Position numbers and translations under genes: made by a program. 55,112 nt of DNA from an uncultured virus (IMG/VR IMGVR_UViG_3300031841_003153) (lineage: Duplodnaviria; Heunggongvirae; Uroviricota; Caudoviricetes), in IMG/VR virus record IMGVR_UViG_3300031841_003153, one strand, 5' to 3'. Position 1 is the stretch's first letter. Every line of letters begins with the position of its first letter. Below are positions 37,410 to 52,004 of the stretch, one piece after another. Under the pieces are notes generated by a model. It saw nothing but the letters and a program-made list of their open reading frames with translations, was not told the DNA's origin and searched no databases.

Positions 37410-37672
37410 TTCTTGTTTCTCCTTACCTTTTCGGTAAAATATGTAATATAGTGAGACTCATGCCCTGTTACTTCTTTGTGACAAGCTCTACATAGGGCTA
37501 TGCCATTGTCGGGGTCAAACCTAAGAGTGCTTGCCGTACTCCATTTCATTATATGGTGAACAACACACCTCTTCTTTTTATTACACATTTGACAAGTATA
37601 CTTGTCTCTTTTTAGAACCTTTAGCCTAAACTCTTTGTAAACTGGGTCGTTGTAGTCTCGCCTCTTTGACAT
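37406..37672 (-). CDS. HNH endonuclease
   Basis: RDKYTCQMC...VHHI...NGIALCRACH. Confidence 0.88.
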   Translation of the reverse strand: MSKRRDYNDPVYKEFRLKVLKRDKYTCQMCNKKKRCVVHHIMKWSTASTLRFDPDNGIALCRACHKEVTGHESHYITYFTEKVRRNKK

Positions 37673-38738
37673 CGTGATCCACCATTCTGTTCGCTAAATC
37701 TGTAAAACTAACCCGCCTTTCCCAATGTAATTGTTTCTCCGCTTTTTTTGGTATTCCTAAGAGATAATCCACTTCTGCTGGGCGATAAAACTCTGGATCA
37801 ATAACCACAAGCCGACTCCAATCGTCAATACCCACTCTGGCAAAAGCAGCGTCCAGAAAGTCTCTAACCGAATACGTCTCGCCCGTAGCGATCACATAAT
37901 CATCGGGCGTTTCTTCTTGTAACATAAGCCACATAGCGTTAACGTAATCTTCTGCATGGCCCCAGTCTCGCTTTGCATCTAAGTTACCAAGACGCAGCTT
38001 GGGAAAACCCTCTCTGTCCATAAGGGAGTTATAAAGCATGTTTTCATCATCACTAAACTCCTCTTTTAGAATTTGCCCCAATTCGTTTGTTGGATTCCTC
38101 CATTTCACAAATTCGCCAATCCACTTAGTAATCTTTCGAGTAACAAAGTTTTCACCCCGCCTTTCGCTTTCATGGTTAAACAAAATGCCACAACTTCCGT
38201 GAATTCCATAACCCTCTCTATAATTTCTTACAAGGTGGTGTGCAGCAAGTTTTGCAATAGCATATGGGCTTTGCGGTACAAAGTTCGTATTTTCGTCTTG
38301 ATATTTAACATCTCCGTATCTACCATTGATTACTGTGAAGTTTTTACCAAACATCTCACTGCTGCTTGCTTGATAAAACTTAATTTGGTCTTTTCGCGAA
38401 GAATATCTTATTGCCTCTAAAATATTCAGCACTCCACCGGCAGTAACGTCCCAAGTTAGGCTTGGCTGCTTGAAACTTGTCCCAACATGAGATTGTGCAG
38501 CAAGATTGTAAATCTCATCAGGCTCTTCTTCCTTGATTACATTGCTAACGCTAAAAGCATCAGTAATATCGCCTTCGACGATCTTAATTTTGGGCAAGAT
38601 ATGTGAAATTCTATCTAGAGTGGGAACGCTCACCCTTCTGGTGATTCCAACCACGTCATAACCCTTATTAACTAAGAGTTCTGCTAGATAGCTGCCGTCT
38701 TGTCCTGTTATTCCAAAAATAATAGCCTTTTTATTCAT
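37626..38738 (-). CDS. gmd: GDP-mannose 4,6-dehydratase
   Basis: GITGQDGSYLAE, NLAAQSHV, QASSSE, SPYAIAK, FNHESERRGENFVTRKI, GNLDAKRDWGHA, RPAEVD. Confidence 0.95.
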   Translation of the reverse strand: MNKKAIIFGITGQDGSYLAELLVNKGYDVVGITRRVSVPTLDRISHILPKIKIVEGDITDAFSVSNVIKEEEPDEIYNLAAQSHVGTSFKQPSLTWDVTAGGVLNILEAIRYSSRKDQIKFYQASSSEMFGKNFTVINGRYGDVKYQDENTNFVPQSPYAIAKLAAHHLVRNYREGYGIHGSCGILFNHESERRGENFVTRKITKWIGEFVKWRNPTNELGQILKEEFSDDENMLYNSLMDREGFPKLRLGNLDAKRDWGHAEDYVNAMWLMLQEETPDDYVIATGETYSVRDFLDAAFARVGIDDWSRLVVIDPEFYRPAEVDYLLGIPKKAEKQLHWERRVSFTDLANRMVDHDVKEARLQRPSLQRV

Positions 38739-39543
38739 TGTTTTCCTCATCCTGTCTTATTAGTGTTTCCGGGGTGAGAAACGGCTGATCTACAGCATCG
38801 TCCTCATATGTGTGGTACTGAGAAAGGCGTTCTTTCTCTGCATTGGCGGCTAGTCGCATTTTTTCCATATCTATACCAATCTTAGTACGAAATTCGGAAT
38901 CTGTTGCAAGCTGTTTCACAAGTGCAGCAAAAGTTTGCTTGCTGTCTTCAATAGCCTTGATTCTTTGCTCTCTGGTTCCTTTCAGATCTTTCAGCATCGT
39001 TGCTTTGCGAGTCTGGAGATCCTTGTAGTCTTTGCTAAGAGTTTCTTGCGATGCCCTCAGAACAGCTACCTGACGCTCCAAGTTCATAATAAGGTCTGTG
39101 TCCCACTGATCCCTGTCAACCTGCTTTGCGTCATGGACCATTTGTTCATAAACTGATATTTGAGATTGATTATCGGCCTGCCCCTTTAAGATCCTATTCA
39201 TAAGGATTTCCAGCTTGATTGTGTCGATAATCTGCATTTCCTCGGTGTGGAACACATCGTCCTTGAACTGACTCCACATTTTCTTAAAGTGAAACTCAAA
39301 CATTTCCAATTCTGGTTCAGAAAACTGTGCTTTGAGTTCACGGTAGTAAGGTCGGCTCTTTAACTCATTGGCTACTTCGGCCTCTTTCTTTTGCTTTACA
39401 GAAAACCCTATGTTTTTGGCTATCCACTCTTTGACGCTATCTGGATCACGATCCAACTCAGAAGCTATTTCGATGATAGAAAGAACCTCGGCATTGGCCT
39501 CGATAAATTTCATATCCGAATTGGAAAATCTACCCTTTTTCAT
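38731..39543 (-). CDS. HTH/Myb-like plus coiled-coil protein (terminase small subunit candidate)
   Basis: N-terminal GRFSNSD...IASELDRDPDSVKEWI; helical C-terminus; upstream in packaging operon. Confidence 0.45.
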   Translation of the reverse strand: MKKGRFSNSDMKFIEANAEVLSIIEIASELDRDPDSVKEWIAKNIGFSVKQKKEAEVANELKSRPYYRELKAQFSEPELEMFEFHFKKMWSQFKDDVFHTEEMQIIDTIKLEILMNRILKGQADNQSQISVYEQMVHDAKQVDRDQWDTDLIMNLERQVAVLRASQETLSKDYKDLQTRKATMLKDLKGTREQRIKAIEDSKQTFAALVKQLATDSEFRTKIGIDMEKMRLAANAEKERLSQYHTYEDDAVDQPFLTPETLIRQDEENNE

Positions 39544-40058
39544 TCTTCAAACTCTCCGCTTATAATTTGCTCTACTACTTGAATTATATATGCCTTTCGG
39601 CTTTTGGGCAAAGAGGAGTTGCTCTGTAATTTTAAGTAATCACGTCTTAGATGAGATGGAAGCTTTCTATCAATCAATTCCATGATCTCTTTAAGGTGTA
39701 CTTCATTAGATGTACTATCTCTGGTGAATACACTATATATGGCCTCTATTGATACAGGCTCTAGTAACGCCTTTTTTCTATCTTGAATTTTTTGGGCACT
39801 TGTACCGTAATCTAAACGATAGTAGTTATCCCTCTTGAAAGTTTTAAGCCTATTATTTATATGTGTGTACATAAAGTTTTCCAAGGGGCGAGACGGATCA
39901 TATCTTTCAAGTCCACTAACACCAATAAGAAAAGCCTCTTGTTCTATATCCTCTACCTCATATCCTGCAAAAACATACTTTGGGGCTAGTTTTTTAGATA
40001 TCTTTAAAATCACCTCGGTAACATATTCCCGATCAAGTCCTTCTGGTATCCTCATCAA
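39540..40058 (-). CDS. Phage sigma70-family factor (candidate late sigma)
   Basis: Region-2-like EDIEQEAFLIGVSGLERYDPSRPLENFMYTHINNRL. Confidence 0.75.
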   Translation of the reverse strand: MMRIPEGLDREYVTEVILKISKKLAPKYVFAGYEVEDIEQEAFLIGVSGLERYDPSRPLENFMYTHINNRLKTFKRDNYYRLDYGTSAQKIQDRKKALLEPVSIEAIYSVFTRDSTSNEVHLKEIMELIDRKLPSHLRRDYLKLQSNSSLPKSRKAYIIQVVEQIISGEFEE

Positions 40059-40303
40059 TCAACCTCTTCGTCAACACTGTCCATTTCTGCCTCTGTTGAC
40101 GAATCTTGTACTGGTTCGCTTGTCTCATTATGAGACGACCATTGGATATCTTGTGAGCTTTTATCATTTAACTTTTGTATTTCCTCTACGGTTAGAGGTC
40201 TATCAGGAACATCTAAATCATTTGCAACAGATTTATCCAACGAGGCTGTGCTTTTTGTGCTTAATTTAAGCTGCGGGCTTGCACCCAACTTTTTCTTTGC
40301 CAT
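40055..40303 (-). CDS. Hypothetical protein
   Basis: 82 aa, AAGGTGA RBS, ATGA overlap with sigma gene. Confidence 0.6.
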   Translation of the reverse strand: MAKKKLGASPQLKLSTKSTASLDKSVANDLDVPDRPLTVEEIQKLNDKSSQDIQWSSHNETSEPVQDSSTEAEMDSVDEEVD

Positions 40304-40636
40304 TTTATCACCTTTGTTTGTATGTGAGCCAATGCGTCACATCTTGTTATAGTGTTTTTCCGTAGGTTTTACACATTTTAAAGGTATTTTGAAGTAAAGT
40401 GGGGCAGAAAGAAGCATTCACAGGGGCAGTCTTTGGGGTTTGGGTGGGACATATATTTTTATTTGGGGCCAATTTTGTCTAAACCACCCAGCCGATTTGT
40501 CAATACTAAAAGCAAAAAAAACCTGAAAATAAAATTACCCCCTTTTTTCAGAATTATGCTGTAGACCTATTGACAATCTTGCCGATCTATGTATAATAAG
40601 GGCATACAAGAGACAACAACAACTAAGGAAAACATT

Positions 40637-40768
40637 ATGACAAGTTACGAAAAAGCAATTGCAGAAGTTAAAGAAATGGTCAAAAACGGATCGACTTTGA
40701 GAGAAGCTATCAAAGACGTAGCTTCAGAGTTCGGATTCTTTGAAGCAGAATTATGGGAAGAATTTTAG
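40637..40768 (+). CDS. Small early protein (43 aa)
   Basis: Promoter, CA-rich leader, AAGGAA, then MTSYEKAIAEVKEMVKNG...WEEF. Confidence 0.65.
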   Translation: MTSYEKAIAEVKEMVKNGSTLREAIKDVASEFGFFEAELWEEF

Positions 40769-40856
40769 GATTTTACCCTATTGGGACTTGACAAAACAAC
40801 CGATATCTGTATAATAGAAGCATACAAGAGACAACAACAACTAAACGAGAAAAACA

Positions 40857-41087
40857 ATGACTTTCAAAATGAACGACGAAGTAGTAAACAACATCCTTGC
40901 AATCACTGAGGAACACGGTTTTGAAACCGTTTCCGATTGGGCTGAGTTTGAGGGAGGGCTACACTTCGTTGTGGAAACTATCCAGAACGAACTGTGGTTA
41001 GACTACGATCTGTACTATGATGATCTGGAAGATGCTTGCGATTGGTTGTTTGACCGCGAACAACGACTAGAGCGATTGGAAAACTAA
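40857..41087 (+). CDS. Acidic small early protein
   Basis: Own promoter; D/E- and aromatic-rich 76 aa. Confidence 0.7.
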   Translation: MTFKMNDEVVNNILAITEEHGFETVSDWAEFEGGLHFVVETIQNELWLDYDLYYDDLEDACDWLFDREQRLERLEN

Positions 41088-41190
41088 TCAGAAAAACTTT
41101 CTGATTTTAGGCTAAAGGCTCTTGACAAACTAGCCGATAACTGTATAATAGAAGCATACAACAAACAACAACTAACTAAGGTAAAACATT

Positions 41191-41397
41191 ATGACTAACT
41201 TTCAAAACTTCATCAACAGCGTCGATTGCACCGCCAACATCACCGTAAGCGGCAACGCTTGTAAGGTTGGTTGGACTCACACCACCACCGCCAACAACGT
41301 TTCCATTAACGGAGATCGTGTTATGATGTACGATCACAAGATTAAACGATATATCCACACTCAAATAAAAGATATAAAATCTTTCAAATTGGCCTAA
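41191..41397 (+). CDS. Small early protein (possible SH3/WYL-like beta fold)
   Basis: Own promoter, AAGGT RBS; MYDHKIKRYIHTQIKDIKSF. Confidence 0.65.
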   Translation: MTNFQNFINSVDCTANITVSGNACKVGWTHTTTANNVSINGDRVMMYDHKIKRYIHTQIKDIKSFKLA

Positions 41398-41474
41398 TCA
41401 GCTATTGACAATGCGGACGATAACTGTATAATAGAAGCATACAAGAGACAACAACTACTAACTAAGGTAATAAG

Positions 41475-41630
41475 ATGAAAAAGTTTTTAACAGCTAAAGA
41501 GACTGAGGGAATGACCCTCGACCAATTCGTTGCCGCAATGCGGGAAGGTAAGGTAGAAGTGAAGCCGGAAGGTTCACACGAACCTACAGCCGATCAGGTT
41601 ACTATGGGTGGGCGATTCGGTTGCGAGTGA
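41475..41630 (+). CDS. Small early protein (51 aa)
   Basis: Promoter, AAGGT; MKKFLTAK...EPTADQVTMGGRFGCE. Confidence 0.65.
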   Translation: MKKFLTAKETEGMTLDQFVAAMREGKVEVKPEGSHEPTADQVTMGGRFGCE

Positions 41631-41685
41631 TTCGCCACTGTCAATAGCAAATCCAGAAAATAACTAGGTTTTCTGGAAATCGACG

Positions 41686-41762
41686 TAAGTCCTTACGTAT
41701 CAACGACTTAGGACAAAAATCGGGGCGGCGATTGACGTAACTCCTTATACAGCAACGACTTA
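41686..41762. repeat. 77-bp double-palindrome element, copy 1
   Basis: TAAGTCCTT-N7-AACGACTTA, 27 bp, TAACTCCTT-N7-AACGACTTA. Confidence 0.9.
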
Positions 41763-41992
41763 CAACGATTCTTAAAAACTTTCGGAATTGTGCAGATTTG
41801 GTATTGACATCTACATATCGCAATATCACGATATATCATGACATAAAACCATATGTCCTACCCCATATAATAGGGGTATATGGATAACAGCCAGTGCCAG
41901 TGGTCAGCCAATAATGCAAAAAACTTTGATAAAATTCTAGAAAATAGGCGTACAGGGGTTGACAAATCCTGAAAAGTATGTATAATAGGGGC

Positions 41993-42148
41993 ATGAAAGA
42001 AAGAAAAGAATACGATCACAAATGTTGCTTCTGCGGTAAAAACATGAAATCCGCTGAGAAGCCTCACCCATCATTGAAGGTTTCACACGTCGAGTGTGCT
42101 TTCGAGGCTTGCAAAAAAGTTCGGGAAAAAGTTCAGAATAACTGCTGA
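41993..42148 (+). CDS. Small Cys/His protein, probably leaderless (51 aa)
   Basis: ATG 6 nt after TATAAT; CCFCG...HVEC. Confidence 0.55.
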   Translation: MKERKEYDHKCCFCGKNMKSAEKPHPSLKVSHVECAFEACKKVREKVQNNC

Positions 42149-42221
42149 ACCCTCTTGACAAATGACGATATATAGTATATAATAAGAGCATAACAACAAC
42201 ACTACTACAAAAGGTAAAAAC

Positions 42222-42419
42222 ATGTTTAACGTAGAATTTGAAAACCAAAACGGCGACTGGGCTTTCCGCACTTTCAACACTCAGCAAGCCGCTGACGTGT
42301 TCGCCAAGAACGCCGAGATGCAGGGTTGCAAGATCCTGTTTTGCGGCAATCCTCGCGACGTGTTGGGAGAGCCTACATGGAGCAGCGTGACAATGGATGG
42401 TCGCTTCTCCTGCGATTGA
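42222..42419 (+). CDS. Small early protein
   Basis: Promoter, AAGGT; ends EPTWSSVTMDGRFSCD. Confidence 0.7.
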   Translation: MFNVEFENQNGDWAFRTFNTQQAADVFAKNAEMQGCKILFCGNPRDVLGEPTWSSVTMDGRFSCD

Positions 42420-42426
42420 TTGACAC

Positions 42427-42505
42427 AATCGGATATCCTACCGATTCCAAATAAATTAGGTTCTAGGAATTTAACCGCAAGTTATACTAGGTAATCAAAA
42501 CTGCG
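42427..42505 (+). ncRNA. Tandem double-pseudoknot RNA, copy A
   Basis: Covarying helices with copy at 45383-45462. Confidence 0.65.
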
Positions 42506-42550
42506 ACACTAACACACTAACACACTAACACACTAACACACTACACACTA
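42506..42550 (+). repeat. ACACTAAC tandem repeat (4 perfect plus 2 partial) in a 5' leader
   Basis: Direct reading. Confidence 0.85.
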
Positions 42551-42561
42551 GAGAAAACATT

Positions 42562-42735
42562 ATGAAACAAGATCGTGAACTAGCTGAAATGGCAAAGGCC
42601 GAGCAAGAGGAACTAGACTCGCAAGAGCTTGCCTATCATTGCACCACCCTATCACAAGAGGAAGTAGTGGAGCTATACGTTTCACTCGCTCGCGAGACTG
42701 GCAAGCTACGCCAAGAGATAGACTACAAGTTCTAG
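42562..42735 (+). CDS. Small helical protein (57 aa), possible paralog of 46208-46399
   Basis: MKQDRELAEMAKAEQEELDSQELAYHC... versus ...VKAEQQFLDEQMYRRNLEHC... Confidence 0.6.
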   Translation: MKQDRELAEMAKAEQEELDSQELAYHCTTLSQEEVVELYVSLARETGKLRQEIDYKF

Positions 42736-42745
42736 TCAATAGCCA

Positions 42746-42822
42746 TAAGTCCTTACCACACAACGACTTAGGTGAGGTAGGGCCGCCCCGATTGACGTAA
42801 GTGCTTACACAGCAACGACTTA
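42746..42822. repeat. 77-bp element, copy 2
   Basis: 25+27+25 bp. Confidence 0.9.
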
Positions 42823-42966
42823 CGACGATTAGAATTATTTCTTAAAAACTTTCGGAATTAGGGTGCAGAGGGGTTGACAAATCTGCCGATATATGTATAA
42901 TAGGGGAGTCAAGCAGAGAGGAAAGCACCTAGCCGACTGGCAGGCCGCTCTCGGAAGTCTCGACAC

Positions 42967-42980
42967 TGATCTTTGACAAT
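42967..42980 (+). promoter_or_regulatory. boxA-like antitermination site TGATCTTTGACAAT
   Basis: Also at 47403 and 47639; resembles rrn boxA; precedes RNA cluster. Confidence 0.5.
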
Positions 42981-43124
42981 TTGGTTGTTTTTTTCATTTT
43001 CACTGGCGAAAGCCCTTGACAAATGACGATAACTATGGTATAATGATAAAATGTTAAACGCGAGTCGGGCAAGATGTCCCGATCTGTAAGATCAGACAAA
43101 TTCACAAAATCGCGAACAATACAA

Positions 43125-43179
43125 GAGGCAAACCAACAGGTCGGCTTATGCTTAACGGCAGGTTGGATAGTAAGTCCTC
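43125..43179 (+). ncRNA. Structured RNA (GAGGCAAACC family), copy A
   Basis: Near-identical copy at 47959-48013 with compensatory stem change. Confidence 0.65.
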
Positions 43180-43256
43180 ACCAATACAATACGGGGCTTC
43201 TCAAAGGCGAGAGCCGGACGCTACTGCGTTTCACAGAGTTTATTTCTAACCCTTTA

Positions 43257-43329
43257 GCGGGGGTTGACCTAACAGGCGTGAGACGTTGCCGGTGTAAGGC
43301 AGGTTCGATTCCTGCAAGCCTCTGCCCAC
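43257..43329 (+). ncRNA. tRNA-like RNA (T-arm, long acceptor-like stem, CCA)
   Basis: GCAGG-TTCGATT-CCTGC; GCGGGGGTT/AGCCTCTGC; ends CCA; no canonical D or anticodon arm. Confidence 0.5.
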
Positions 43330-43335
43330 AATACA

Positions 43336-43590
43336 ATGTTTAAGTGTGTTATCACTGAACACTTTGGTCCCTTTAACGGGTTTGGCGGTTACGGTTCGAT
43401 CACTCAGGTCGGAATGGATCGCTCACCCGCTAAGGCAGTCGCCAAGGCTAAGGCTTGGAACATCACTGACGGTAAAGCTATCAGGCGATACGTCAATGAG
43501 AGTCCTGCCGGTGCTGGCGGTGGCGTTCCAATTATGACTGATTTCACCTTGCTAAAAAACGGCAAGGTAGTCAAGCAAACTTGGGATTGA
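43336..43590 (+). CDS. Small early protein
   Basis: 84-aa ORF after RNA cluster. Confidence 0.6.
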   Translation: MFKCVITEHFGPFNGFGGYGSITQVGMDRSPAKAVAKAKAWNITDGKAIRRYVNESPAGAGGGVPIMTDFTLLKNGKVVKQTWD

Positions 43591-43620
43591 CCTAGTGTGA
43601 AGTCGTCGGCCTTTCGAGGT

Positions 43621-43661
43621 TGTGGAGTTTGATAAGCTCTGTCGTAATCACTCAATTATCA
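43621..43661 (+). ncRNA. 3'-UTR pseudoknot element, copy A
   Basis: Covaries with 48263-48303. Confidence 0.55.
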
Positions 43662-43690
43662 CAAAATTTTCATTTTCCTCTTGACAACCG

Positions 43691-43767
43691 TAAGTCCTTA
43701 TATACCAACGACTTAGAGCGGACCGGGCAGCCCAGATCGACGTAAGTCCTTATATACCAACGACTTA
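43691..43767. repeat. 77-bp element, copy 3
   Basis: Two identical boxes TAAGTCCTTATATACCAACGACTTA, 27 bp apart. Confidence 0.9.
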
Positions 43768-43969
43768 CATCAAACACCGGCGAACACCAGCACCCCAGCA
43801 AATACCATGCCAAAGCCTGTCTTTTCTAAAGTAAAAAGACTATGTTTCACAGCCAGCGGTCAGTAAACTTTGATAAAATTATATAAAAATAGTGGCGTAG
43901 GGGTTGACAAACAGTCGATATTATGTATAATAGAGGACATACAACAAACAACTCTTTAAGGTAAAAATT

Positions 43970-44104
43970 ATGACTCACAAAATCATCACCCTCTGCATCG
44001 ACGCTCTTATTCAACTTGCTTCCACCAAGGGCAATAGTGGGCAATTCAACCGCGACGTAGACGACGCAATAAAATCTTTGCGAAATGTCAAGAAATACCT
44101 TTAG
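43970..44104 (+). CDS. Small early protein (44 aa)
   Basis: Promoter, AAGGT; MTHKIITLCID... Confidence 0.6.
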   Translation: MTHKIITLCIDALIQLASTKGNSGQFNRDVDDAIKSLRNVKKYL

Positions 44105-44170
44105 AACCTCTTGACAAATGACGATAAGTATGGTATAATAAGAGCATAACAAGTTAAGGATTTTAAGATT

Positions 44171-44674
44171 ATGAAAAAAGCATTTGTATTTGATTTTGAT
44201 GACACTCTCGCAACCACCGATTGCAAGGTTATCGTTCGTCGTCGAAACTCCATTGGTGGAAGGTTTACTGTTCGTAAATTGACTCCTGCTGAGTTCAATA
44301 CTGACGTTCTCGCAGACGGTGAAGAATATGACTTTTCCGAGTTCCGTTCTGCTGAGTTCATCCGTTCGGCTAACCCTACTTTTCTTATGGCTCTTGCCCA
44401 AGAGGTTCACAATGAAGGGCATAGCGTTTATGTTCTTACTGCTCGTGCTGATAATGTGGCCGATGCAATCACTAGCTGGTTGCTTGGTTTTGGTGTTAAA
44501 CCTGTTCGCGTTTTCGGTGTTGGTTCCGATGATAAAAAGGTAGACATTCCAGCAGAAAAGCAAAAGGTTTTGAGAACCTTAAATCAGCTTTTCGATGTTG
44601 TCTACTTTTACGATGATGACCAACACAATGTTGACCTTGCTGGTCAAGTTGGTGTCAAGACCTATTTGGTATAA
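44171..44674 (+). CDS. HAD-superfamily phosphatase
   Basis: Motif I FDFDDTL, motif II VLTAR, conserved Lys, motif IV FYDDDQHN. Confidence 0.85.
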   Translation: MKKAFVFDFDDTLATTDCKVIVRRRNSIGGRFTVRKLTPAEFNTDVLADGEEYDFSEFRSAEFIRSANPTFLMALAQEVHNEGHSVYVLTARADNVADAITSWLLGFGVKPVRVFGVGSDDKKVDIPAEKQKVLRTLNQLFDVVYFYDDDQHNVDLAGQVGVKTYLV

Positions 44675-44687
44675 TTGAGGTAAAATT

Positions 44688-44825
44688 ATGAAAGTTTATG
44701 TTGTTTTATATGATGATTACGAAATGCTTGAGGTTGTGGGCGTCTTTATCAATGAGGGTGAGGCCGAGAAGGTAGCAGCAACAAGCAACAAATACTACAT
44801 ACGAGAATCCACTTTGATGAAGTAA
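44688..44825 (+). CDS. Small protein (45 aa)
   Basis: GAGG RBS; MKVYVVLYDDYE...; its TAA stop is the first 3 nt of element copy 4. Confidence 0.6.
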   Translation: MKVYVVLYDDYEMLEVVGVFINEGEAEKVAATSNKYYIRESTLMK

Positions 44826-44899
44826 GTCCTTTGGTGGCAACGACTTAGGGCAAAAATTGTTGCGGCGATTGACGTAACTCCTTATACACCAACGACTTA
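44823..44899. repeat. 77-bp element, copy 4
   Basis: 25+27+25 bp. Confidence 0.9.
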
Positions 44900-44985
44900 C
44901 GACACAAACAAAAAACTTTGATAAAATTATGAGAAAATGGTGGTGTAGGGGTTGACAAATCGACGATATAGTGTATAATAGAAGT

Positions 44986-45108
44986 ATGAAATTTAAGAAA
45001 TCACGACAAATGATCGCCTTTTGGAACATCTTCGCCTATGGCGGAAATCGCCCCACTAATGTCACCCCCGCACGTTGGGCAGCAATTTGCAAATTCTTTG
45101 AGAATAAT
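44986..45108 (+). CDS. Small leaderless ORF (40 aa)
   Basis: ATG 6 nt after TATAAT. Confidence 0.5.
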
Positions 45109-45209
45109 CTCTAAGATTGACCTAACGTGTCACTACCATAGACGATAATACTAATATAAGAGATCAACGGTTGATCTCAAATTCATTCCTCTAACCAAAG
45201 GTATTTGTT

Positions 45210-45374
45210 ATGACTTATAAGACAAACAACTACTACTGGGACTCAGTTGCTAACCGCAAGCCGGTTGCTCCCGAAACCCCCGCACAACGTGCGGATCGCA
45301 AGCAGCGTGAAGCTGATGCGTATGCTGCTTATGTAGCAAAGTACGGGCATAGCCCATTCAAACGCACCAAGTAG
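45210..45374 (+). CDS. Small protein (54 aa)
   Basis: AAGGT RBS; MTYKTNNYYWDS... Confidence 0.6.
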   Translation: MTYKTNNYYWDSVANRKPVAPETPAQRADRKQREADAYAAYVAKYGHSPFKRTK

Positions 45375-45382
45375 TGCGGCTT

Positions 45383-45462
45383 ACTCGGATCTCCTGCCGA
45401 ATATAAATAAATCAGGTCTTGGAAGTTAAACGGTAAGTTGTACCAAGCAATCAAAACTACCG
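45383..45462 (+). ncRNA. Tandem double-pseudoknot RNA, copy B
   Basis: Covaries with 42427-42505. Confidence 0.65.
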
Positions 45463-45503
45463 CCCAACAACATTCTTTACAACACTTACCAAAGGTAAAC
45501 ATT

Positions 45504-45734
45504 ATGACTACTAAACAATTTGACGTAACCTACATCAATCCTTTCAGCGGTCGCGAAGTGACCGAGGTTGAGGTTTCCGCCAACTACCTATCACAAAACG
45601 ATAGCGGCGAAACCGTTTTTCGTATGAACGACTTTCATCCCGCTTGCGAAGTGGTGCGAGTCGTTGAGGTTTCACAGGCTCGGCTTGACGCTAAGGCTGC
45701 ATACTTCGCTCGTTGGGGTACTGCAAATGAGTGA
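45504..45734 (+). CDS. Small protein (76 aa)
   Basis: AAGGT RBS before MTTKQFDV. Confidence 0.65.
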   Translation: MTTKQFDVTYINPFSGREVTEVEVSANYLSQNDSGETVFRMNDFHPACEVVRVVEVSQARLDAKAAYFARWGTANE

Positions 45735-45890
45735 GTTTTTCTCTACTGCGTTTGACTTGTTTATGATCTGCATCTCCGCATTCGCGTTTATGTGCGGGGT
45801 AATGTCAGTTGTTTATATGCTTTTACATTGGAGCTAATTATAGCGGGCGTTCTGTCAATAGACATTTTCCAAATTTTCTCAGAATAGTCA

Positions 45891-45967
45891 TAAGTCCTTG
45901 TGCAGCAACGACTTAGGGCGTCGGCGGCTGCCCGGATCGACGTAACTCCTTACACACCAACAACTTA
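45891..45967. repeat. 77-bp element, copy 5
   Basis: 25+27+25 bp. Confidence 0.9.
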
Positions 45968-46207
45968 CAACTATTTTGTCTTTTCTAAACTTTTCCGATA
46001 GAAATTGACCAGACTTGTCATACCGATGTGCGATAATATAAGTAAGGAGATAACGAAATGGAAATTGTAATTTGTAGTGCGGCAGCTTTGGTGATGGTTC
46101 AAGTTTTTATGATAATCTTTGAAGAAAGTAAGAGATAGGGCTTGACAAATGCCGATAAGTATGGTATAATAATAGTATAACAAAAACAACAACAAAAGGT
46201 AAAAACT

Positions 46208-46399
46208 ATGAAACTTGAAAACGACCCACAATTCCAAGCCGAAGTTAAAGCCGAACAACAGTTCCTCGACGAACAAATGTACCGGCGTAACTTGGAGCAT
46301 TGCACTAAAGAACAACTCCTCGAACTGTGTATCGGCCTGCTCCACAGCGAAAAAGAGAAGCGGGAAGAATTGGATAAAATTCACGGAATTATCCGATAG
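46208..46399 (+). CDS. Small helical protein
   Basis: Promoter and AAGGT RBS. Confidence 0.7.
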   Translation: MKLENDPQFQAEVKAEQQFLDEQMYRRNLEHCTKEQLLELCIGLLHSEKEKREELDKIHGIIR

Positions 46400-46471
46400 A
46401 CCCCTTGACAAATAGCGATAAGTATGCTATAATAGGGGCATACAACACACAACACTTTTAAAGGTTTTACT

Positions 46472-46876
46472 ATGAAATTTGAAAACACCATCGGCGGAAA
46501 ACTGGTTGCCGAACTTCGCCAAGCTACCCGCGAATTGATCGTGGTTCCTAACTCTTGCCTACCTGCCGAAATGCACGATAACGTGCGTGGCGGTCGTACT
46601 CTTGCACGTTTGGAAGAACTGTGTGAGAAGCGTGACGGTATCACCGCTCACACAAAACTCAAGGCTCTAAAGGCTCGCAACGTCGAGCGTTTGGCTGCTC
46701 AAGTAGAAGCGAAAAGCGTTTTTGCTGCTCATGGTGATTTCGTCGATCTTACCGGCGAATTGGATTACTCGGATAACGAGTGCGATGATTTGCAGTTGAC
46801 CAAAAATATGCAAGCCTTGGTTGGCGGCATGGTCAACGGTGGATTGATCGACGCTGACGATCTTTTGGAGGATTGA
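46472..46876 (+). CDS. Hypothetical early protein
   Basis: Promoter and AAGG RBS, 134 aa. Confidence 0.75.
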   Translation: MKFENTIGGKLVAELRQATRELIVVPNSCLPAEMHDNVRGGRTLARLEELCEKRDGITAHTKLKALKARNVERLAAQVEAKSVFAAHGDFVDLTGELDYSDNECDDLQLTKNMQALVGGMVNGGLIDADDLLED

Positions 46877-46880
46877 TTTT

Positions 46881-47150
46881 ATGAAAATTCAACTAGCCGC
46901 ACTTGCAAGACTTCGCACAAACTCCACCGCGATGTTTGAATTTCCCGCTGAATGGGGCGAATTTGATTTTACGGATACCAACGAGCAGATTCGTGCTTGT
47001 GAATTGATTATGTCTGAAACTGGTGCTATGTGGATTCCTGTAGCATACGCAGAAGCACACAACGAAACCCAGATAGAGCAGTTCCGTGATTCAGTTTTAA
47101 AGCAGATGGGTGATATACCTGCCTGTGACGTAGAACAAAAGTGGGAATAA
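46881..47150 (+). CDS. Hypothetical protein
   Basis: GGAGG RBS, 89 aa. Confidence 0.7.
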   Translation: MKIQLAALARLRTNSTAMFEFPAEWGEFDFTDTNEQIRACELIMSETGAMWIPVAYAEAHNETQIEQFRDSVLKQMGDIPACDVEQKWE

Positions 47151-47213
47151 TGCTTGTCAACCCCAAAACCTTCTATTTTCTCAATTTTTTTATAGCTTTT
47201 TTTCTTGCTGTCG

Positions 47214-47290
47214 TAAGTCGTTTACTGGCAACGACTTAGGTCGGCGGCGGCTGCGGCGGGCGACGTAAGTCCTTTCATACCAACAACTTA
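47214..47290. repeat. 77-bp element, copy 6
   Basis: First box has perfect arms TAAGTCGTT/AACGACTTA. Confidence 0.9.
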
Positions 47291-47846
47291 CGACGATCCC
47301 GAAAAACTTTTGAAATAATCTCATAAAAAGGTGGCCTACCCCTTGACAAATGGACGATATTGTGTATAATGGGGGTATGAGAACGGCAAGCAAGCCCCTC
47401 ACTGATCTTTGACAATTTGGTAGTTCAACATTCTCCACGGGGAGGCGGTAAGCTGTGCCGCCAAAGTAATGGAAGTAACAGCCTCAGAAAATTTCCCCGA
47501 TTTTTACAATTTTGGTCATGATGCCCCTTGACAAATGCCGATAATTATGGTATAATGGGGACATGACAAACGAGATCGCGGGAACTCGAAAACACCCCGC
47601 CAATGCAGTAGAACATTGTAAACAACTCTACGGGACATTGATCTTTTACAATTTGGTTGTTTTTGGAATCGCCCTGATTCGAGGCGGTGCAGGCGAAAGC
47701 CGTAAGACTAACAATATCGGACGCGAACCGGATAGCCACAAGTGAATCCGGCAGCATCAAAATCCACCAATACAGGGCTTGACCCGTAAACCTCGCCCAA
47801 GTCGCGAGTATAGCTGGCGAGCTATTCCAAGATACGCACCATACAA

Positions 47847-47950
47847 TGACTGGTAGTTGGGACAGGATGCGAGGGTTCGACTCCCTCTGGAAACATTGGC
47901 GGCATAGGCTTGATCAGCCACCTGCGAGGGTTCGACTCCCTCACCAGTCG
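47847..47950 (+). ncRNA. tRNA-like RNA with two identical T-arms
   Basis: TGACTGGT/ACCAGTCG closing stem; TGCGAGGGTTCGACTCCCTC twice. Confidence 0.55.
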
Positions 47951-47958
47951 CAATACAA

Positions 47959-48013
47959 GAGGCAAACCAGCCGGTCGGCTTATGCTTAACGGCGGGCTGG
48001 GTAGTAAGTCCTC
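47959..48013 (+). ncRNA. Structured RNA (GAGGCAAACC family), copy B
   Basis: See copy A. Confidence 0.65.
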
Positions 48014-48025
48014 ACACAATACACT

Positions 48026-48235
48026 ATGCCTATGACTTGTGTCGTAGCGGTTCCTTGCGTCAAGTGCAAGAATACCCAAGAAGTCCCAGTTGACTTTGAG
48101 GGTTTTCAGGCTTTGCAATCAGGTGAGTATATCCAAGAAGCTCTACCAGAGCTTGATGCGGATATGCGAGAGCTTTTCATCTCCGGCATTTGTCCTAAAT
48201 GCTGGGATGAGATGTTCCCATCTGACGAGGATTAG
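48026..48235 (+). CDS. Small Zn-finger-like protein
   Basis: CVKC...RELFISGICPKCWD. Confidence 0.7.
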   Translation: MPMTCVVAVPCVKCKNTQEVPVDFEGFQALQSGEYIQEALPELDADMRELFISGICPKCWDEMFPSDED

Positions 48236-48262
48236 AACCCGCTACCGTTTCCGGTTCGCCGG

Positions 48263-48303
48263 TGTGGAGTTTGATTAGCTCTGTCGGAATTACTCAATAA
48301 TCA
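48263..48303 (+). ncRNA. 3'-UTR pseudoknot element, copy B
   Basis: See copy A. Confidence 0.55.
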
Positions 48304-48317
48304 AAACAATTCAATAA

Positions 48318-48494
48318 GCCCCTATAGTTTATTTGGTTAAAACACTATCTCTAGCCAAACTGGTTTGATCGCCAGTGATTCTACAATCTAAGTGGTGGAC
48401 GCACTTACTGGGTTGCGTTGGGTTGATCTCCAACGACACGAATCAGGTTAGGTTCAAGATAGAGAAAATGGTTCGATTCCATTATGGGGAAGCA
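48318..48494 (+). ncRNA. tRNA scaffold with about 100-nt structured insert in the anticodon loop
   Basis: D-arm GTTT-ATTTGGTTA-AAAC, anticodon stem CTATC/GATAG, T-arm AATGG-TTCGATT-CCATT, CCCC/GGGG acceptor; insert 48351-48451. Confidence 0.6.
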
Positions 48495-48606
48495 CATTCT
48501 GATAACGGGGCGTCATAGCCGAGAGGCAAGACCACTCACGCCCACAACCCCCAAACGGGGGAGAGAGAAGTAGGGTTGGCACACTATTTGCAGTAGGTAA
48601 TCGACG

Positions 48607-48683
48607 TAAGTCCTTACGTGGTAAGGGTTTAGGTGCAATCGGGCAGCCCCGCGTGTCGTAAGTCCTTTGGTGACAACAACTTA
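48607..48683. repeat. 77-bp element, copy 7
   Basis: Right-arm variant AAGGGTTTA. Confidence 0.88.
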
Positions 48684-48758
48684 CAACAAATCCTAAAAAC
48701 TTTCAAAAAAAGCTATTGACACCCACTTGACTTTGACGATGTATATAGTATAATGATA

Positions 48759-48823
48759 GAGTAAGCAGGGCAGCAAGATGGAACGGCCTCACAAGTTGGA
48801 ACCCACTTGCCCTGTCTTACCTC
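48759..48823 (+). ncRNA. Promoter-proximal sRNA, conserved stem with variable core, copy A
   Basis: GAGTAAG(A)CAG...CTGTCTTACCTC shared with 50525-50600. Confidence 0.5.
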
Positions 48824-48942
48824 AACTAAACTGATCGAACATTGCTAGAACCGCCAGCAAAAAAACAAAATTAAATTAAAGATTGGGGGTTGACAATGAC
48901 GATAACTATAGTATAATTAAGACATAACACGAAGGAAAGATT

Positions 48943-49113
48943 ATGAAAGAGAAATGGAGTTTGGTACTTTTGATTGTATCTTTTACGCTTGGTTGTTTGC
49001 TTCTTGGTTGCAGACAACCAGTGAGAAACTATAAGATCGTAACCGGATCGCCTGACGTATGGGCGGCAGAACCTAAACAAAAAGTAGAATTCACAGTAGA
49101 GTGGAAACAATGA
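48943..49113 (+). CDS. Small lipoprotein (56 aa)
   Basis: MKEKWSLVLLIVSFTLGCLLLGC lipobox; AAGGA RBS; ATGA overlap with next gene. Confidence 0.6.
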   Translation: MKEKWSLVLLIVSFTLGCLLLGCRQPVRNYKIVTGSPDVWAAEPKQKVEFTVEWKQ

Positions 49114-49313
49114 AGATTAAAAAGAATCAACAGTACGGCATGGATCGGATCGAAACCGATCAAGGTACAGTGTTCTTCCGCAACAAAAACGGTTTCTTTG
49201 ATGCGGCAGGAGAACCGGCCCAACTGTCTAGCATGGCACAGTTAAGAAGATTTGAGGCAAACGAAAATGCAGCACAATGGAGAAAAGTTAAAAAAAATAC
49301 TAAAGACACTTGA
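49110..49313 (+). CDS. Small protein
   Basis: ATGA coupling; MKIKKNQQYG... Confidence 0.6.
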   Translation: MKIKKNQQYGMDRIETDQGTVFFRNKNGFFDAAGEPAQLSSMAQLRRFEANENAAQWRKVKKNTKDT

Positions 49314-49359
49314 CAAAGCCGATAACTACTGTATAATAAGAACATAACACAAAAGGAAA

Positions 49360-49590
49360 ATGACGATGAGTGAGATTGCAGACGTAAAGGTTAAGATACT
49401 GTTCTTTGAGCCATGCACCGCGACGAACTTTGAGCCAGAGTATCAGTTGCGACTCATGGATGGAGAGGAGGGGTTCGACAGTGAGATCGTCCTTGCCACT
49501 GGGAATACTGCTGGTGCAGCAGCCAGAAAGGGGAAAAGAGCATTGAAGCGACTGTTAAAAGAACTTGAAAAGGAGATGGAAGATGAGTAA
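49360..49590 (+). CDS. Small protein
   Basis: Promoter and AAGGA RBS. Confidence 0.65.
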   Translation: MTMSEIADVKVKILFFEPCTATNFEPEYQLRLMDGEEGFDSEIVLATGNTAGAAARKGKRALKRLLKELEKEMEDE

Positions 49591-49756
49591 GGAACTGAAA
49601 GCAGAAAACGAGCGACTGCGTGAGGAAAACGAGCGACTTCGTGAAATAGTCAGTGAGGTGGAGAACCTTCACTACGGGACTGATCTTTTTACCTCGTGTG
49701 CAGCCGGAGAAGCTGACCGGCTCATTGAGCTAATCGAAAGTGAGATGCCTTTTTGA
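49583..49756 (+). CDS. Small coiled-coil protein
   Basis: LKAENERLREENERLRE. Confidence 0.6.
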   Translation: MSKELKAENERLREENERLREIVSEVENLHYGTDLFTSCAAGEADRLIELIESEMPF

Positions 49757-49921
49757 TTTTGTTCAAGATACCCCTTGACAACTGCCGATAATACTGTATA
49801 ATGGAACATATGAGAATGACAAGTTGATAACGAGAGCGGGTTCGCGAAAAGCGAATAGAGAAGGCTAAAACCCGTAAGTCGTCACGATAATTTTCCAACA
49901 CAACACTTTGAAAGGTTTACT

Positions 49922-50095
49922 ATGACTGATTTAGAAAACGACCCACTTTATATACTGCTCAATATTGATCGGCACGGTTCAGACGACGAACCACACTACG
50001 AAGATGACGATTATTCGGAGGGTTTCCAAAACGGCCCCTTCGATATGCACCTTGACGATTACGTTTCCGAAGATGGGGATTATTGCAATGTATGA
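49922..50095 (+). CDS. Very acidic small protein (57 aa)
   Basis: AAGGT RBS; MTDLENDP...DDEPHYEDDDY. Confidence 0.6.
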   Translation: MTDLENDPLYILLNIDRHGSDDEPHYEDDDYSEGFQNGPFDMHLDDYVSEDGDYCNV

Positions 50096-50270
50096 TGAAG
50101 ATTATGATAGCCTTGACTATTGGATGGACTGCGACGAAGAAGATGATCGCAGGGTAGAAGCGGAGCTATTGCGTCAGGCTCAAGATTTTGACGCAGATTT
50201 TTATGGTGATCCAGAACCTACCGAAGATGATTACCAAGACCTTTTAGATGAGTTAGAATATCCCCAATGA
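50088..50270 (+). CDS. Very acidic small protein (60 aa)
   Basis: MYDEDYDSLDYWMDCDEEDD...; overlaps previous stop. Confidence 0.6.
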   Translation: MYDEDYDSLDYWMDCDEEDDRRVEAELLRQAQDFDADFYGDPEPTEDDYQDLLDELEYPQ

Positions 50271-50373
50271 GTGCTGGCGAATTTGTGTGGGGCTTCATCG
50301 GTGCTGGTGCTATTTGGTACATCATTGGTGTAGCTCTGTACGGTTTTTGGTGTGGCCTGACTGGAAAATGACG

Positions 50374-50450
50374 TAAGTCCTTTGATACCAACAACTTAGG
50401 ACGGGCGGGGCTGCGGCCCGCGACGTAAACCCTTTGATACCAACGACTTA
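50374..50450. repeat. 77-bp element, copy 8
   Basis: 25+27+25 bp; left-arm variant TAAACCCTT in second box. Confidence 0.9.
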
Positions 50451-50524
50451 CAACAATTCTAAAAAAACTTTGAGATTTCCTATTGACAACCCCTTGACTT
50501 TGACGATACATATAGTATAATGAT

Positions 50525-50600
50525 AGAGTAAGACAGCCCAATTAAAGCCTCATAAATCAAAAGGGTTCAGGCGGTATGGCTTCCCGTCCTGTCTTACCTC
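50525..50600 (+). ncRNA. Promoter-proximal sRNA, copy B
   Basis: See copy A. Confidence 0.5.
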
Positions 50601-50695
50601 AACTAAACTGATCGGACAGCATAGACACAGCCAGCGAAAAAGAAAAAAAAGATTTTACCCCTTGACATTCGCAAAACATATGGTATAATAGAAGT

Positions 50696-50881
50696 ATGAA
50701 AGACACAATGAAAGACTGGATCGTAAAGATCAACAAAGACACAAGCTGGTCAGTGACCAACAAAGTAACAAAAGAACACCGAAAGATGTGGAGTAAACGA
50801 GATGTCGAAAATTTCCTCGACTGGCAAGAGAATTGCCATGCCCAAGCTAAGGGCAGCAACGATGAAAGATCGTCGCACTAA
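50696..50881 (+). CDS. Small leaderless ORF
   Basis: ATG 6 nt after TATAAT. Confidence 0.55.
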   Translation: MKDTMKDWIVKINKDTSWSVTNKVTKEHRKMWSKRDVENFLDWQENCHAQAKGSNDERSSH

Positions 50882-50949
50882 GCGTAAACGTACACGCCAA
50901 GCACAACGTAGTGCGTGGCAGAAAGATTGTAACTAGAAAGGTTAAAAAG

Positions 50950-51099
50950 ATGATTAAGTTAATCAAAGACAAAGAGACGAAAACCAAGATTCGCTACACT
51001 GTGACCGGTGACGTATCCGGCAGCATCTATGTGGACAAGGATTCAGACCTTGCAAAAGAAACTGAAATTGTTTTGGAAATTGCTCAAGTTACCGCTTGA
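50950..51099 (+). CDS. Small protein
   Basis: AAGGT RBS before MIKLIKDK. Confidence 0.6.
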   Translation: MIKLIKDKETKTKIRYTVTGDVSGSIYVDKDSDLAKETEIVLEIAQVTA

Positions 51100-51159
51100 C
51101 ATTGACGATAAATATAGTATAATGGTAGAGTACAGTTAACAACACTTTTGGAGAGACTT

Positions 51160-51396
51160 ATGAAAGTCAAAACTATCGTAGAGTTAAAATTCGATCACGC
51201 TTACACTAGCTATCGAGCATTGACGTTCCACGATTCCGATCAGAACGAAGTCTGCATCAACATGACAGACGACCAGTATCTCGCACTAGCAGAGACACTA
51301 AACGGCAAAGCGAAGCGTATTCGCGAAGAACGTGCCGACGAAGCTGCGGAAGCAGCAAGGGTGGCAGAACTCGCAAAGGAGAATGAGGATGAGTAA
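51160..51396 (+). CDS. Small protein
   Basis: Promoter and GGAG RBS. Confidence 0.65.
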   Translation: MKVKTIVELKFDHAYTSYRALTFHDSDQNEVCINMTDDQYLALAETLNGKAKRIREERADEAAEAARVAELAKENEDE

Positions 51397-51565
51397 CGAA
51401 GCTCAAAAACCGATTGTCGCAGTCGGAACAAAACTTGCGGCTGGTACTGTTGTCGCCATCAATGGCAACTCTGTTTCGATTGACACTGCGGAAGGTGTTA
51501 AGCAATTTAGTTTTTCTCAAGTAGAGGGTTTCATCAATGATGAACGATTTGTATCTCAAGCGTAA
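51389..51565 (+). CDS. Small beta-rich protein
   Basis: AAGGAG RBS, overlapping upstream stop. Confidence 0.6.
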   Translation: MSNEAQKPIVAVGTKLAAGTVVAINGNSVSIDTAEGVKQFSFSQVEGFINDERFVSQA

Positions 51566-51740
51566 TGAACGCAAAGTCAAGTTCTTGTACCCCAAGAACG
51601 GTAACCGCAACATCCTTCGGGAAGTTGAGGGTGTGAAGGTTCGTTCCTTCACCGGTCCAAATGGTCGCGGTATTACCGTGGCTGAAAAGAACGGCTTACA
51701 CAAGTCGTTTTCAATCGCTAAGTGCGTAGCTTCACTTTAA
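51537..51740 (+). CDS. Small basic protein, possible WYL/SH3-like
   Basis: VKFLYPKNG...REVEG...HKSFSIAK. Confidence 0.6.
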   Translation: MMNDLYLKRNERKVKFLYPKNGNRNILREVEGVKVRSFTGPNGRGITVAEKNGLHKSFSIAKCVASL

Positions 51741-51856
51741 ACTAAGCTAACCTTTCGTGTTGTTGCGAAGATGCGGGACGGGAAACGTAAGCGTTTTGGG
51801 AGTCATGACCCATGTAAGTCGTGTGCTGCACAAGTCCCGCTTCTTTGTTTTTATAT

Positions 51857-51992: not shown

Positions 51993-52004
51993 CTTTTATC
52001 GACG

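Follow-up and report, generated by a model that had tools for sequence, protein, structure and literature searches.

A tandem double-pseudoknot RNA between early genes of uncultured tailed phages, and a possible role as a roadblock to messenger RNA decay

Here we describe a structured RNA that occurs twice in a 55,112-nucleotide stretch of DNA from an uncultured virus (IMG/VR record IMGVR_UViG_3300031841_003153), a stretch referred to throughout as the window. The genes for terminase, portal, maturation protease and tape-measure proteins on its minus strand mark the window as part of a tailed phage, and small open reading frames (ORFs) fill the plus strand from about 40.5 kb on. Among these small genes lie the two copies of the element, A (42428-42505) and B (45384-45462), both on the plus strand, each placed shortly after the stop codon of one ORF and ahead of a CA-rich leader that runs to the next. 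A preliminary description, made from the sequence alone, had called them a duplicated tandem double pseudoknot; both copies are indeed present, they align without a gap over 79 columns, and the proposed pairs form at 21/21 positions in copy A and 20/21 in copy B. Each copy consists of two H-type pseudoknots (PK1 and PK2) joined by a single U. By alignment column, the four stems are S1 (1-5/14-18) and S2 (10-13/30-33) in PK1, then the linker U34, then S3 (35-39/60-64) and S4 (49-56, with one bulged A, paired to 72-78) in PK2. In the window these parts are as follows, with lengths in nucleotides (nt).

42428..42460, plus strand: pseudoknot 1 of copy A; S1 42428-42432/42441-42445, S2 42437-42440/42457-42460
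Within 42428..42460, plus strand: PK1 loops of copy A; first loop 4 nt, last loop 11 nt and A-rich
42461, plus strand: linker U between the knots of copy A; invariant in 20/20 distinct sequences
42462..42505, plus strand: pseudoknot 2 of copy A; S3 42462-42466/42487-42491, S4 42476-42483 (one bulged A)/42499-42505
Within 42462..42505, plus strand: PK2 loops of copy A; first loop 9 nt and U-containing, last loop 7 nt and A-rich
45384..45416, plus strand: pseudoknot 1 of copy B; terminal S1 pair lost, S2 junction pair G-C
45418..45462, plus strand: pseudoknot 2 of copy B; compensatory changes in S3 and S4, S4 longer by one pair

The two copies differ at 22 positions, and the compensatory changes that had been claimed for them are real: ten of these positions make up five pairs changed on both sides from A to B (columns 13-30, AU to GC; 36-63, CG to UA; 38-61, AU to GC; 49-78, CG to GC; 51-76, CG to UA). 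In addition, one U-G pair becomes C-G, and copy B no longer forms the terminal pair 1-18. In 200,000 trials with 22 substitutions placed at random on copy A, none kept at least 20 pairs together with at least five compensatory ones. All four stems first proposed are borne out, with the amendments that S1 and S3 are stems of 5 base pairs (bp) and that the 3' loop of PK1 measures 11 nt instead of 8 (4 nt in two homologues). S3 of copy A closes with a U-G pair, and either of two neighbouring As fits as the S4 bulge. The knots offer 9 and 12 coaxial pairs one U apart, about 21 in total. Possible additional pairs at 40-59 and 48-79 are not general (paired in 1/17 and 8/17 rows), and a 3-bp pairing of columns 46-48 with 54-56 is possible and would compete with S4. 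Nested folding of the single strand gave no signal (z of -0.74 and +0.26) with a program that is unable to form pseudoknots. Around the stems, the invariant U43 and U44 adjoin the invariant pairs U55-A73 and U56-A72, and in one alignment (A4) all 22 invariant unpaired positions are A or U, with no G or C among them.

Because the structure was chosen from copies A and B themselves, homologues provide a fairer test than the random-substitution trial. They were gathered by a search of virus loci with a pattern of loop bases only (7 true of 9), by profile searches of the fetched loci, which added three divergent sites, by a genome scan (2 true of 3 loci, both on phage-like contigs) and by a metagenome scan in which 11 of the 117 loci listed were true and the rest mostly chance, so that the total number of sites is a minimum. 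The working set, with duplicate loci counted once, holds 22 sites and 20 distinct sequences from related aquatic tailed phages; a covariance model (R1) was built from 17 of the sequences. Only S1 and S3 were used to fit the 22-site alignment; alignments made with MAFFT led to the same result. According to the preliminary description, homologues without covariation would have spoken against the structure. In the alignment of the 20 sequences, 99.3% of 417 cells pair and 11/21 pairs are changed on both sides (three each in S1, S2 and S3, and two in S4), so the structure stands. None of 500 shuffled controls scored as high, in a comparison that ignores kinship, and slid controls were 20-41% paired. 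The sequences are close to one another (mean identity 89%). S1 exists in four versions, S2 in five and S3 in eight; for S4, support comes from one variant haplotype with two changed pairs, and five other pairs never vary. PK1 and PK2 types recombine, with eight combinations among 17 rows. G-U outnumbers A-C by ten cells to three, which favours an RNA read from the plus strand. By comparison of sequences, then, the element is a real, uncatalogued RNA family with strong covariation.

The two knots were found only together. Patterns for PK1 only and for PK2 only returned the same seven contigs, and a looser PK2 pattern returned 57 loci, ten with known sites, and no new or stand-alone knots. Within the window the model finds copies A and B alone: with filters off, the next score is 12.5 bits against 89.7. 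A general search for knots behind stop codons found 13 at 596 gene ends against seven in 587 control windows, and eight of the 13 were this element. The Rfam scan that the preliminary description had suggested gave no hit in the window at the gathering threshold (Rfam 15), and nothing relevant appeared at E-values up to 10 over 40300-55112 or 42400-42570. In literature on structured phage RNAs, phage exoribonuclease-resistant RNAs (xrRNAs) and intercistronic pseudoknots, mostly non-subscription full texts, no description of the element was found, and the accessible parts of PMC3997798 and of 2026 genome-language-model preprints make no mention of it. A survey accessible in part (PMC10690425) predicted 8,495 candidate RNAs from IMG/VR; a search of three of its six readable supplements gave no match, and the element may be an unnamed entry among those candidates.

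The genes and promoters around the two copies are listed here in order, with protein lengths in amino acids (aa).

42155..42183, plus strand: promoter of the copy A cassette; sigma-70-type, 12/12 consensus bases (consensus match only)
42222..42419, plus strand: ORF upstream of copy A; 65 aa, TGA stop 8 nt before S1, no PHROG or Pfam family
42507..42561, plus strand: CA leader of copy A; short tandem units, no G ahead of the ribosome-binding region
42562..42735, plus strand: ORF downstream of copy A; 57 aa, no Pfam family
44952..44979, plus strand: promoter upstream of copy B; sigma-70-type, 12/12 consensus bases (consensus match only)
45210..45374, plus strand: ORF upstream of copy B; 54 aa, TAG stop 9 nt before S1, no Pfam family
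45463..45503, plus strand: CA leader of copy B; CA-rich
45504..45734, plus strand: ORF downstream of copy B; 76 aa, virus-only hypothetical family

This arrangement, a stop codon about 8 nt upstream (8 nt in copy A, 9 nt in copy B) and a CA-rich leader after both copies, had been noticed at the outset, and it extends to the homologues. Upstream context could be assessed at 20 sites, two more being cut by contig ends, and every assessable site has an upstream gene. S1 begins 7-9 nt after the stop codon at 18/20 sites and 15 nt after it at the other two; such a stop was found at 91 of 9,110 random positions and at 14 of 145 promoters. The 20 upstream ORFs belong to six unrelated families of small early genes, five of which show the 7-9 nt spacing. 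In two of the families the same spacer is found in gene copies that have no element, so the stop spacing is partly inherited; in one of the two, an identical 3' flank is followed either by a promoter or by the element, depending on the phage, and a short word is shared where they join. A recoding signal, that is a stimulator of read-through or of -1 frameshifting, is excluded at the 20 sites because all three stop codons are used (6 TGA, 5 TAG and 9 TAA), no slippery heptamer occurs in the 20 nt before S1, and continuation in frames 0, -1 and +1 yields extensions of 1-27 residues that never reach the next ORF as a fusion.

Among the 20 sites that no contig end interrupts, 19 have a downstream gene. 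The remaining site (L113:3999) looks like a deletion, since its downstream repeat variant is that of three sites that keep the gene. The 19 downstream ORFs fall into 12 unrelated families of small ORFs. Homologues of the 45504..45734 ORF sit upstream of the element in other phages, and an Atlas search with this 76-aa ORF returned a virus hypothetical cluster only. The start codon stands 29-55 nt past the fold (median 39, 19 sites), behind a leader that is CA-rich and nearly free of G; the ribosome-binding region lies outside the fold, and in the window no terminator match falls in the leader. The same kind of leader is found behind promoters, where the distance to the start codon is 30-49 nt (median 39, 24 sites), a distance taken from the -10 box, which makes the transcribed leader shorter by a few bases. 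A script found 46 CA leaders, of which 24 follow a promoter, seven follow the element and 15 follow neither; by eye, those 15 comprise nine promoter variants or miscalled starts, five leaders directly after a stop codon and one ambiguous case.

The element lies 184-1,165 nt downstream of a promoter, in a region that is dense with them. The plus strand carries 26 sigma-70-type matches with 11-12 of 12 consensus bases each, scored by consensus match alone. Promoter-like sites number 59 against 24.9 expected and terminator-like sites 15 against 14.4, with few terminators on the plus strand; with terminators at chance and promoters many, transcripts probably read through. Contigs from two RNA-run studies span the element or its variants, one of them 5,440 nt long, although their ends and strand are not visible and DNA carry-over is possible. 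RNA runs that share parts of the stretch (5-7% of its words each) are labelled marine or salt marsh.

Several other features of this early region deserve record. Between 40570 and 54114 most promoter matches have a 16-nt spacer holding a common short word, which may be the site of a host or phage factor. A second recurring promoter-like motif, unlike the sigma-70 consensus, stands ahead of CA leaders (about 45120-45155 in the window) and recurs in the loci L002, L070, L085, L097 and L295. The phage encodes a protein with sigma-70 region 2 (39540-40058). A 109-nt repeat of two dyad units (41675-41783, with eight further copies up to 52102) is found upstream of promoter groups every 1-1.8 kb or so, and many relatives have it too. 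On the minus strand, 37626-38750 holds a GDP-mannose 4,6-dehydratase gene whose closest listed relatives are mostly metagenome proteins, one of them on a related phage record of 148 kb.

Among related records, which reach 148-163 kb, presence of the element is patchy and copy number ranges from 0 to 2. The model matches 9 of 48 such records, all of them carriers recognised previously, and one of two near-complete ones; the nearest related record (G001, 12.6 kb) has no element. In 50,697 annotated phage records nothing was found beyond pieces of 24-29 nt at an E-value of 6. Two contigs from metagenome-assembled genomes (L295 and L296) were considered as bacterial hosts and rejected; they are read as mis-binned phage DNA because they carry the phage's promoters, repeats and ORF families. 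Judged by this distribution, a single phage group carries the element as an optional module, which is gained, lost and reshuffled.

What might such a module do? The reading that we favour, tentatively and with somewhat less than an even chance of being right, is that the element is a cis-acting intercistronic RNA roadblock against decay that originates at the 5' end, acting on long read-through early transcripts. Given the size of the ribosome footprint, the element would fold just beyond the terminating ribosome, and its two knots, with 9 and 12 coaxial pairs one U apart, would form one large discontinuity. Once the upstream message is cut or stripped of its triphosphate, 5'-to-3' decay through scanning by RNase E/G would halt at the element, and RNase J, if the host has one and the fold is resistant, would halt at the same position. 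The leader and downstream gene would then survive as a translatable unit, so that an internal gene would gain a protected 5' end instead of its own promoter; the element may also hold the upstream 3' end.

Work in E. coli offers a precedent. As far as the accessible part of that report goes (PMC9943677), RNase E scans from a monophosphorylated 5' end, H-type pseudoknots impede the scanning whereas orthogonal stem-loops are bypassed, protection climbs with the number of coaxial pairs (8, 11, 15), and ribosomes protect less, since they leave at the stop codon. These findings would give one answer to the questions of why there are knots and not hairpins, why there are two and why they stand where they do. 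A flaviviral xrRNA is likewise stated, in the portion available of PMC5760640, to halt RNase J1. We also count in favour of a roadblock that the leader after the element has the same median length as the promoter-to-start distance, that transcripts probably read through, that a downstream gene is present at 19/20 sites, that one gene family has either a promoter or the element behind its 3' flank, and that xrRNA-WCC likewise has a small knot with a second helix close behind it (PMC10321173). Of the functions that the preliminary description had listed, a nuclease block appears to fit best, and a riboswitch and an antitoxin mimic fit poorly.

A number of observations pull the other way. In the available part of PMC10321173, Xrn1 was not stalled by four ordinary frameshift pseudoknots, and adding a hairpin to two of these made no difference, so being a knot is not by itself enough to block an exonuclease. 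Five of the 46 CA leaders stand behind a stop codon and lack both a promoter and the element. Spacing is tighter on the upstream side, where the stop codon is 7-9 nt away (six families), than on the downstream side, where the start codon is 29-55 nt away (12 families), which suits a role at the 3' end or on the ribosome as well. The invariant loop bases may mark a binding pocket and not mechanics, although among sequences this similar their invariance says little either way. The element is dispensable, being present at 17/54 homologous gene ends and missing from the complete relative G007, and searches with the terminase, the GDP-mannose dehydratase and the sigma factor gave no host name, on which the set of host nucleases depends.

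The main rival to the roadblock, unlikely on present evidence, is a 3'-end cap for the upstream gene. Here a cut in the single-stranded CA leader would admit 3'-to-5' exonucleases, which would degrade the RNA as far as PK2. The 3' strand of PK2 lies inside a duplex that is probably covered by U-A-U triples (ENE-like), and the short upstream mRNA would be stabilised in a region that lacks terminators. Exonucleases of this polarity are general in bacteria. The tight anchoring to the stop codon at 18/20 sites, well above both controls, speaks for a cap, as do the upstream gene at every assessable site, the one site that lacks a downstream gene, the scarcity of plus-strand terminators, and the position of U43 and U44 beside U55-A73 and U56-A72. 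Against it, two gene families owe part of the spacer to their native flank, and the gene-less site looks like a deletion. A plain hairpin, moreover, would suffice as a 3'-end cap, which leaves the two knots unexplained. Since roadblock and cap may both hold, the element is probably a nuclease barrier of some direction.

Distinctly less likely is an action on the ribosome, in which the element would contact the terminating ribosome at the mRNA entrance and stall it, or would uncouple the next gene by blocking scanning after termination. A stop codon is no more than 15 nt away at any of the 20 assessable sites, and repetitive extragenic palindromic (REP) elements within that distance are reported to stall ribosomes in the part of PMC12306157 available, as coremin RNAs are reported to block scanning ribosomes in that of PMC10520033. 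The spacing, however, ranges over 7-15 nt and is partly inherited, recoding is excluded, and down-regulation of its own early genes would be a poor fit for a phage with near-perfect promoters.

We give little credence to PK2 as a ligand aptamer of the SAM-II/SAM-V fold with a changed pocket, serving as a stability sensor or a sponge. Its layout does match that of SAM-V as given in the accessible part of PMC6061858, and in the 163-kb record G033 one copy is overlapped by the top-scoring SAM_alpha hit (12.1 bits, E-value 0.36). This score is a third of the 36-bit cut-off, however, and the hit spans PK1 and half of PK2; the same search also matched 14/14 control genomes and left the other three copies unmatched, and SAM_V matched no copy. 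The U meant to pair with SAM has its own invariant A partner. More generally, the riboswitch first suggested is disfavoured by 12 unrelated downstream families, a ribosome-binding region outside the fold, and the lack of a terminator or any other expression platform.

Slimmer still as an explanation is a decoy for a host RNA-binding defence nuclease, for example a type III toxin; the decoy would take the form of a stable 79-nt RNA made from strong early promoters. PK1 measures 33 nt, near the 34-36 nt of ToxI monomers, its loop has the AA/AU word cut by ToxN-Pa (PMC5086642, seen in part), and patchy presence at 0-2 copies would suit a decoy. Yet in the antitoxins and pseudo-ToxI like repeats form an array and carry single-stranded tails, whereas here two unlike knots stand one base apart, with no repeat array and no single-stranded tail between them; the ToxI model matches 0/4 copies in three records, the loop with the AA/AU word is only 4 nt long in two homologues, and the link to stop codons would not be needed. 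The earlier idea of an antitoxin mimic is thus disfavoured.

Slighter again is the chance that the element is a new self-cleaving ribozyme, one that would process polycistronic early RNA into pieces the size of a gene. In prophage operons, genes are flanked by hammerheads (PMC3088659, seen in part). A pistol ribozyme scores above cut-off in the early region of 2/34 related records (G006:C1:13150-13211, and G007:C1:35004-35065, equal to L310:5005-5066), behind a different gene. The element matches no ribozyme family, and catalytic bases in ribozymes are commonly G, C or A, whereas all 22 invariant unpaired positions here are A or U. The least probable reading, a cis-acting antitermination RNA like HK022 put, whose two stems are joined by a single base and of which one copy lies behind a short early gene, could draw on the two domains with one invariant joining base and on the distance of the element from its promoter, but there are few terminators to overcome, a new promoter comes every few hundred bases, and the element is optional.

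A bolder version of the roadblock can be formulated, and its parts, taken jointly, are unlikely to be all correct. The element would be a mobile RNA that substitutes for a promoter and is shuffled among early cassettes, making nuclease-proof internal message ends; PK1 would face decay from the 5' side and PK2, with a triple-helix fold like that of SAM-II/V, would face the 3' side; and the PK2 pocket would be filled by the RNA's own adenine or be open to a new ligand. If this is true, phages would have a native equivalent of eukaryotic xrRNAs, able to insulate mRNA in both directions.

Blocks to RNase E scanning and xrRNAs have so far been shown mainly with knots of eukaryotic viruses. A compact element native to a DNA phage, whose four stems all have natural compensatory variants, opens to direct test the idea that phages set early-gene output through decay roadblocks between genes; it follows a clear positional rule and has in the roadblock a testable mechanism. 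If it works, the 79-nt tandem knot could also serve synthetic operons, where it would stabilise or insulate individual cistrons. The range of the family, one phage group, is narrow, so its general weight is limited.

Other structured RNAs lie nearby. A second repeated RNA, without an Rfam hit, occupies 43117-43181 and 47951-48015, with a third copy on the minus strand of L006 (593-701); its copies are 92% identical and have a closing stem, a second stem that is not constant among them and a hairpin whose loop can pair with the 3' junction. Pieces resembling the T-arm of tRNA occur in non-coding stretches near 43300, 47870, 47926, 48470 and 51970, where ARAGORN makes no tRNA call; at 47926-47950 the loop can also pair with the bases that follow. 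A hairpin cluster at 47776-47840 recurs with changed sequence directly after the stop codon in L029 and L082, behind a homologue of the 45504 ORF. The pistol ribozyme of the relatives sits behind a homologue of the window ORF 51537-51740, where the window has a different non-coding stretch (51742-51990). Known self-cleaving ribozyme cores gave no Rfam match in the window, and type II hammerheads were found in 0/34 records in a search whose positive controls were also without a match. A knot-like match at 51409-51440, inside the ORF 51383-51565, has an apparent covariant in L027; it is treated as chance because it is lost in most homologues of the ORF, including L092 and L032.

Compared with known RNAs, the element resembles several families and should be filed under none of them. 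It shares compact H-type knots, A-rich loops and the size of PK1 with ToxI, antiQ, CptI and pseudo-ToxI. According to the available part of PMC5086642, those are arrays of like repeats of 34-36 nt or longer with single-stranded tails; the element has no array of like repeats, no tails and no adjoining toxin gene, and RF02519 matches no copy. PK1 recalls preQ1-I (RF00522): it is an H-type knot of 33 nt, its first stem has 5 bp and ends in G-C, and its last loop is A-rich. The portion of PMC11625349 available gives preQ1-I a UC or AC right before the 3' strand of P1, the C conferring specificity, whereas PK1 has UA, UG, CA, AG or GG there, and the last of these bases belongs to the covarying Watson-Crick pair 13-30, which thus fills the place of the ligand; the RF00522 model matches 0/4 copies. 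PK2 has the part order of SAM-II (RF00521) and SAM-V (RF01826), namely a short stem, a U-containing third strand, an A-A-C turn and an irregular pseudoknot helix, the order for SAM-V being that of PMC6061858 and the triples not being readable from sequence. In SAM-II/V a free U pairs with the adenine of SAM, whereas U75 of the element has an invariant A partner; the best score is the 12.1 bits given above against a cut-off of 36, and no overlap with a Shine-Dalgarno sequence, no terminator and no sulfur-metabolism genes accompany the element. The statement of the preliminary description that the consensus bases of known riboswitches are missing is confirmed by these preQ1-I and SAM-II/V sequence tests, which fail.

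As an optional structured RNA in intergenic gaps, at most 15 nt from a stop codon and beside changing genes, the element is like REP elements and prophage hammerheads, but it is made of pseudoknots where REP elements are palindromic hairpins, and it shows no recognised catalytic core. Closer in architecture are coremin (xrRNA-C) and xrRNA-WCC, in so far as the accessible parts of PMC10321173 and PMC10520033 describe them: a small knot with an A-rich last loop, a second helix within one base of it (in the element, S3 begins one base after S2 at 22/22 sites) and a position shortly after a coding region. Their first stem has 4 bp, its loop is YGAD, YGNNAD or a G-led tetraloop, and a conserved CUAC spacer pairs to the loop. 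The element, by contrast, has a first stem of 5 bp with an 8-nt loop starting AU, does not fit that consensus and has no such spacer; its second helix is itself part of a pseudoknot, and it comes from a bacterial DNA phage where coremin and xrRNA-WCC come from plant and invertebrate RNA viruses. The defining feature of an xrRNA is, in the accessible part of 10.1101/2024.12.17.628992, a ring around the 5' end with a knot-like topology.

The last comparison is with the knots placed in the path of RNase E (BWYV, VPK, hTR-deltaU and SARS-CoV-2), as far as the available part of PMC9943677 describes them. These are likewise H-type, with pairing coaxial with the path of the RNA, and like the phage element they stand upstream of a single-stranded segment and a coding region; the natural cases considered there are small-RNA binding, stress responses and riboswitches. 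If both knots of the phage element act as one, its roughly 21 coaxial pairs exceed the 15 that gave maximal protection in E. coli. The E. coli knots were heterologous and engineered into reporters, whereas the phage element, known from sequence, is a native tandem between cistrons.

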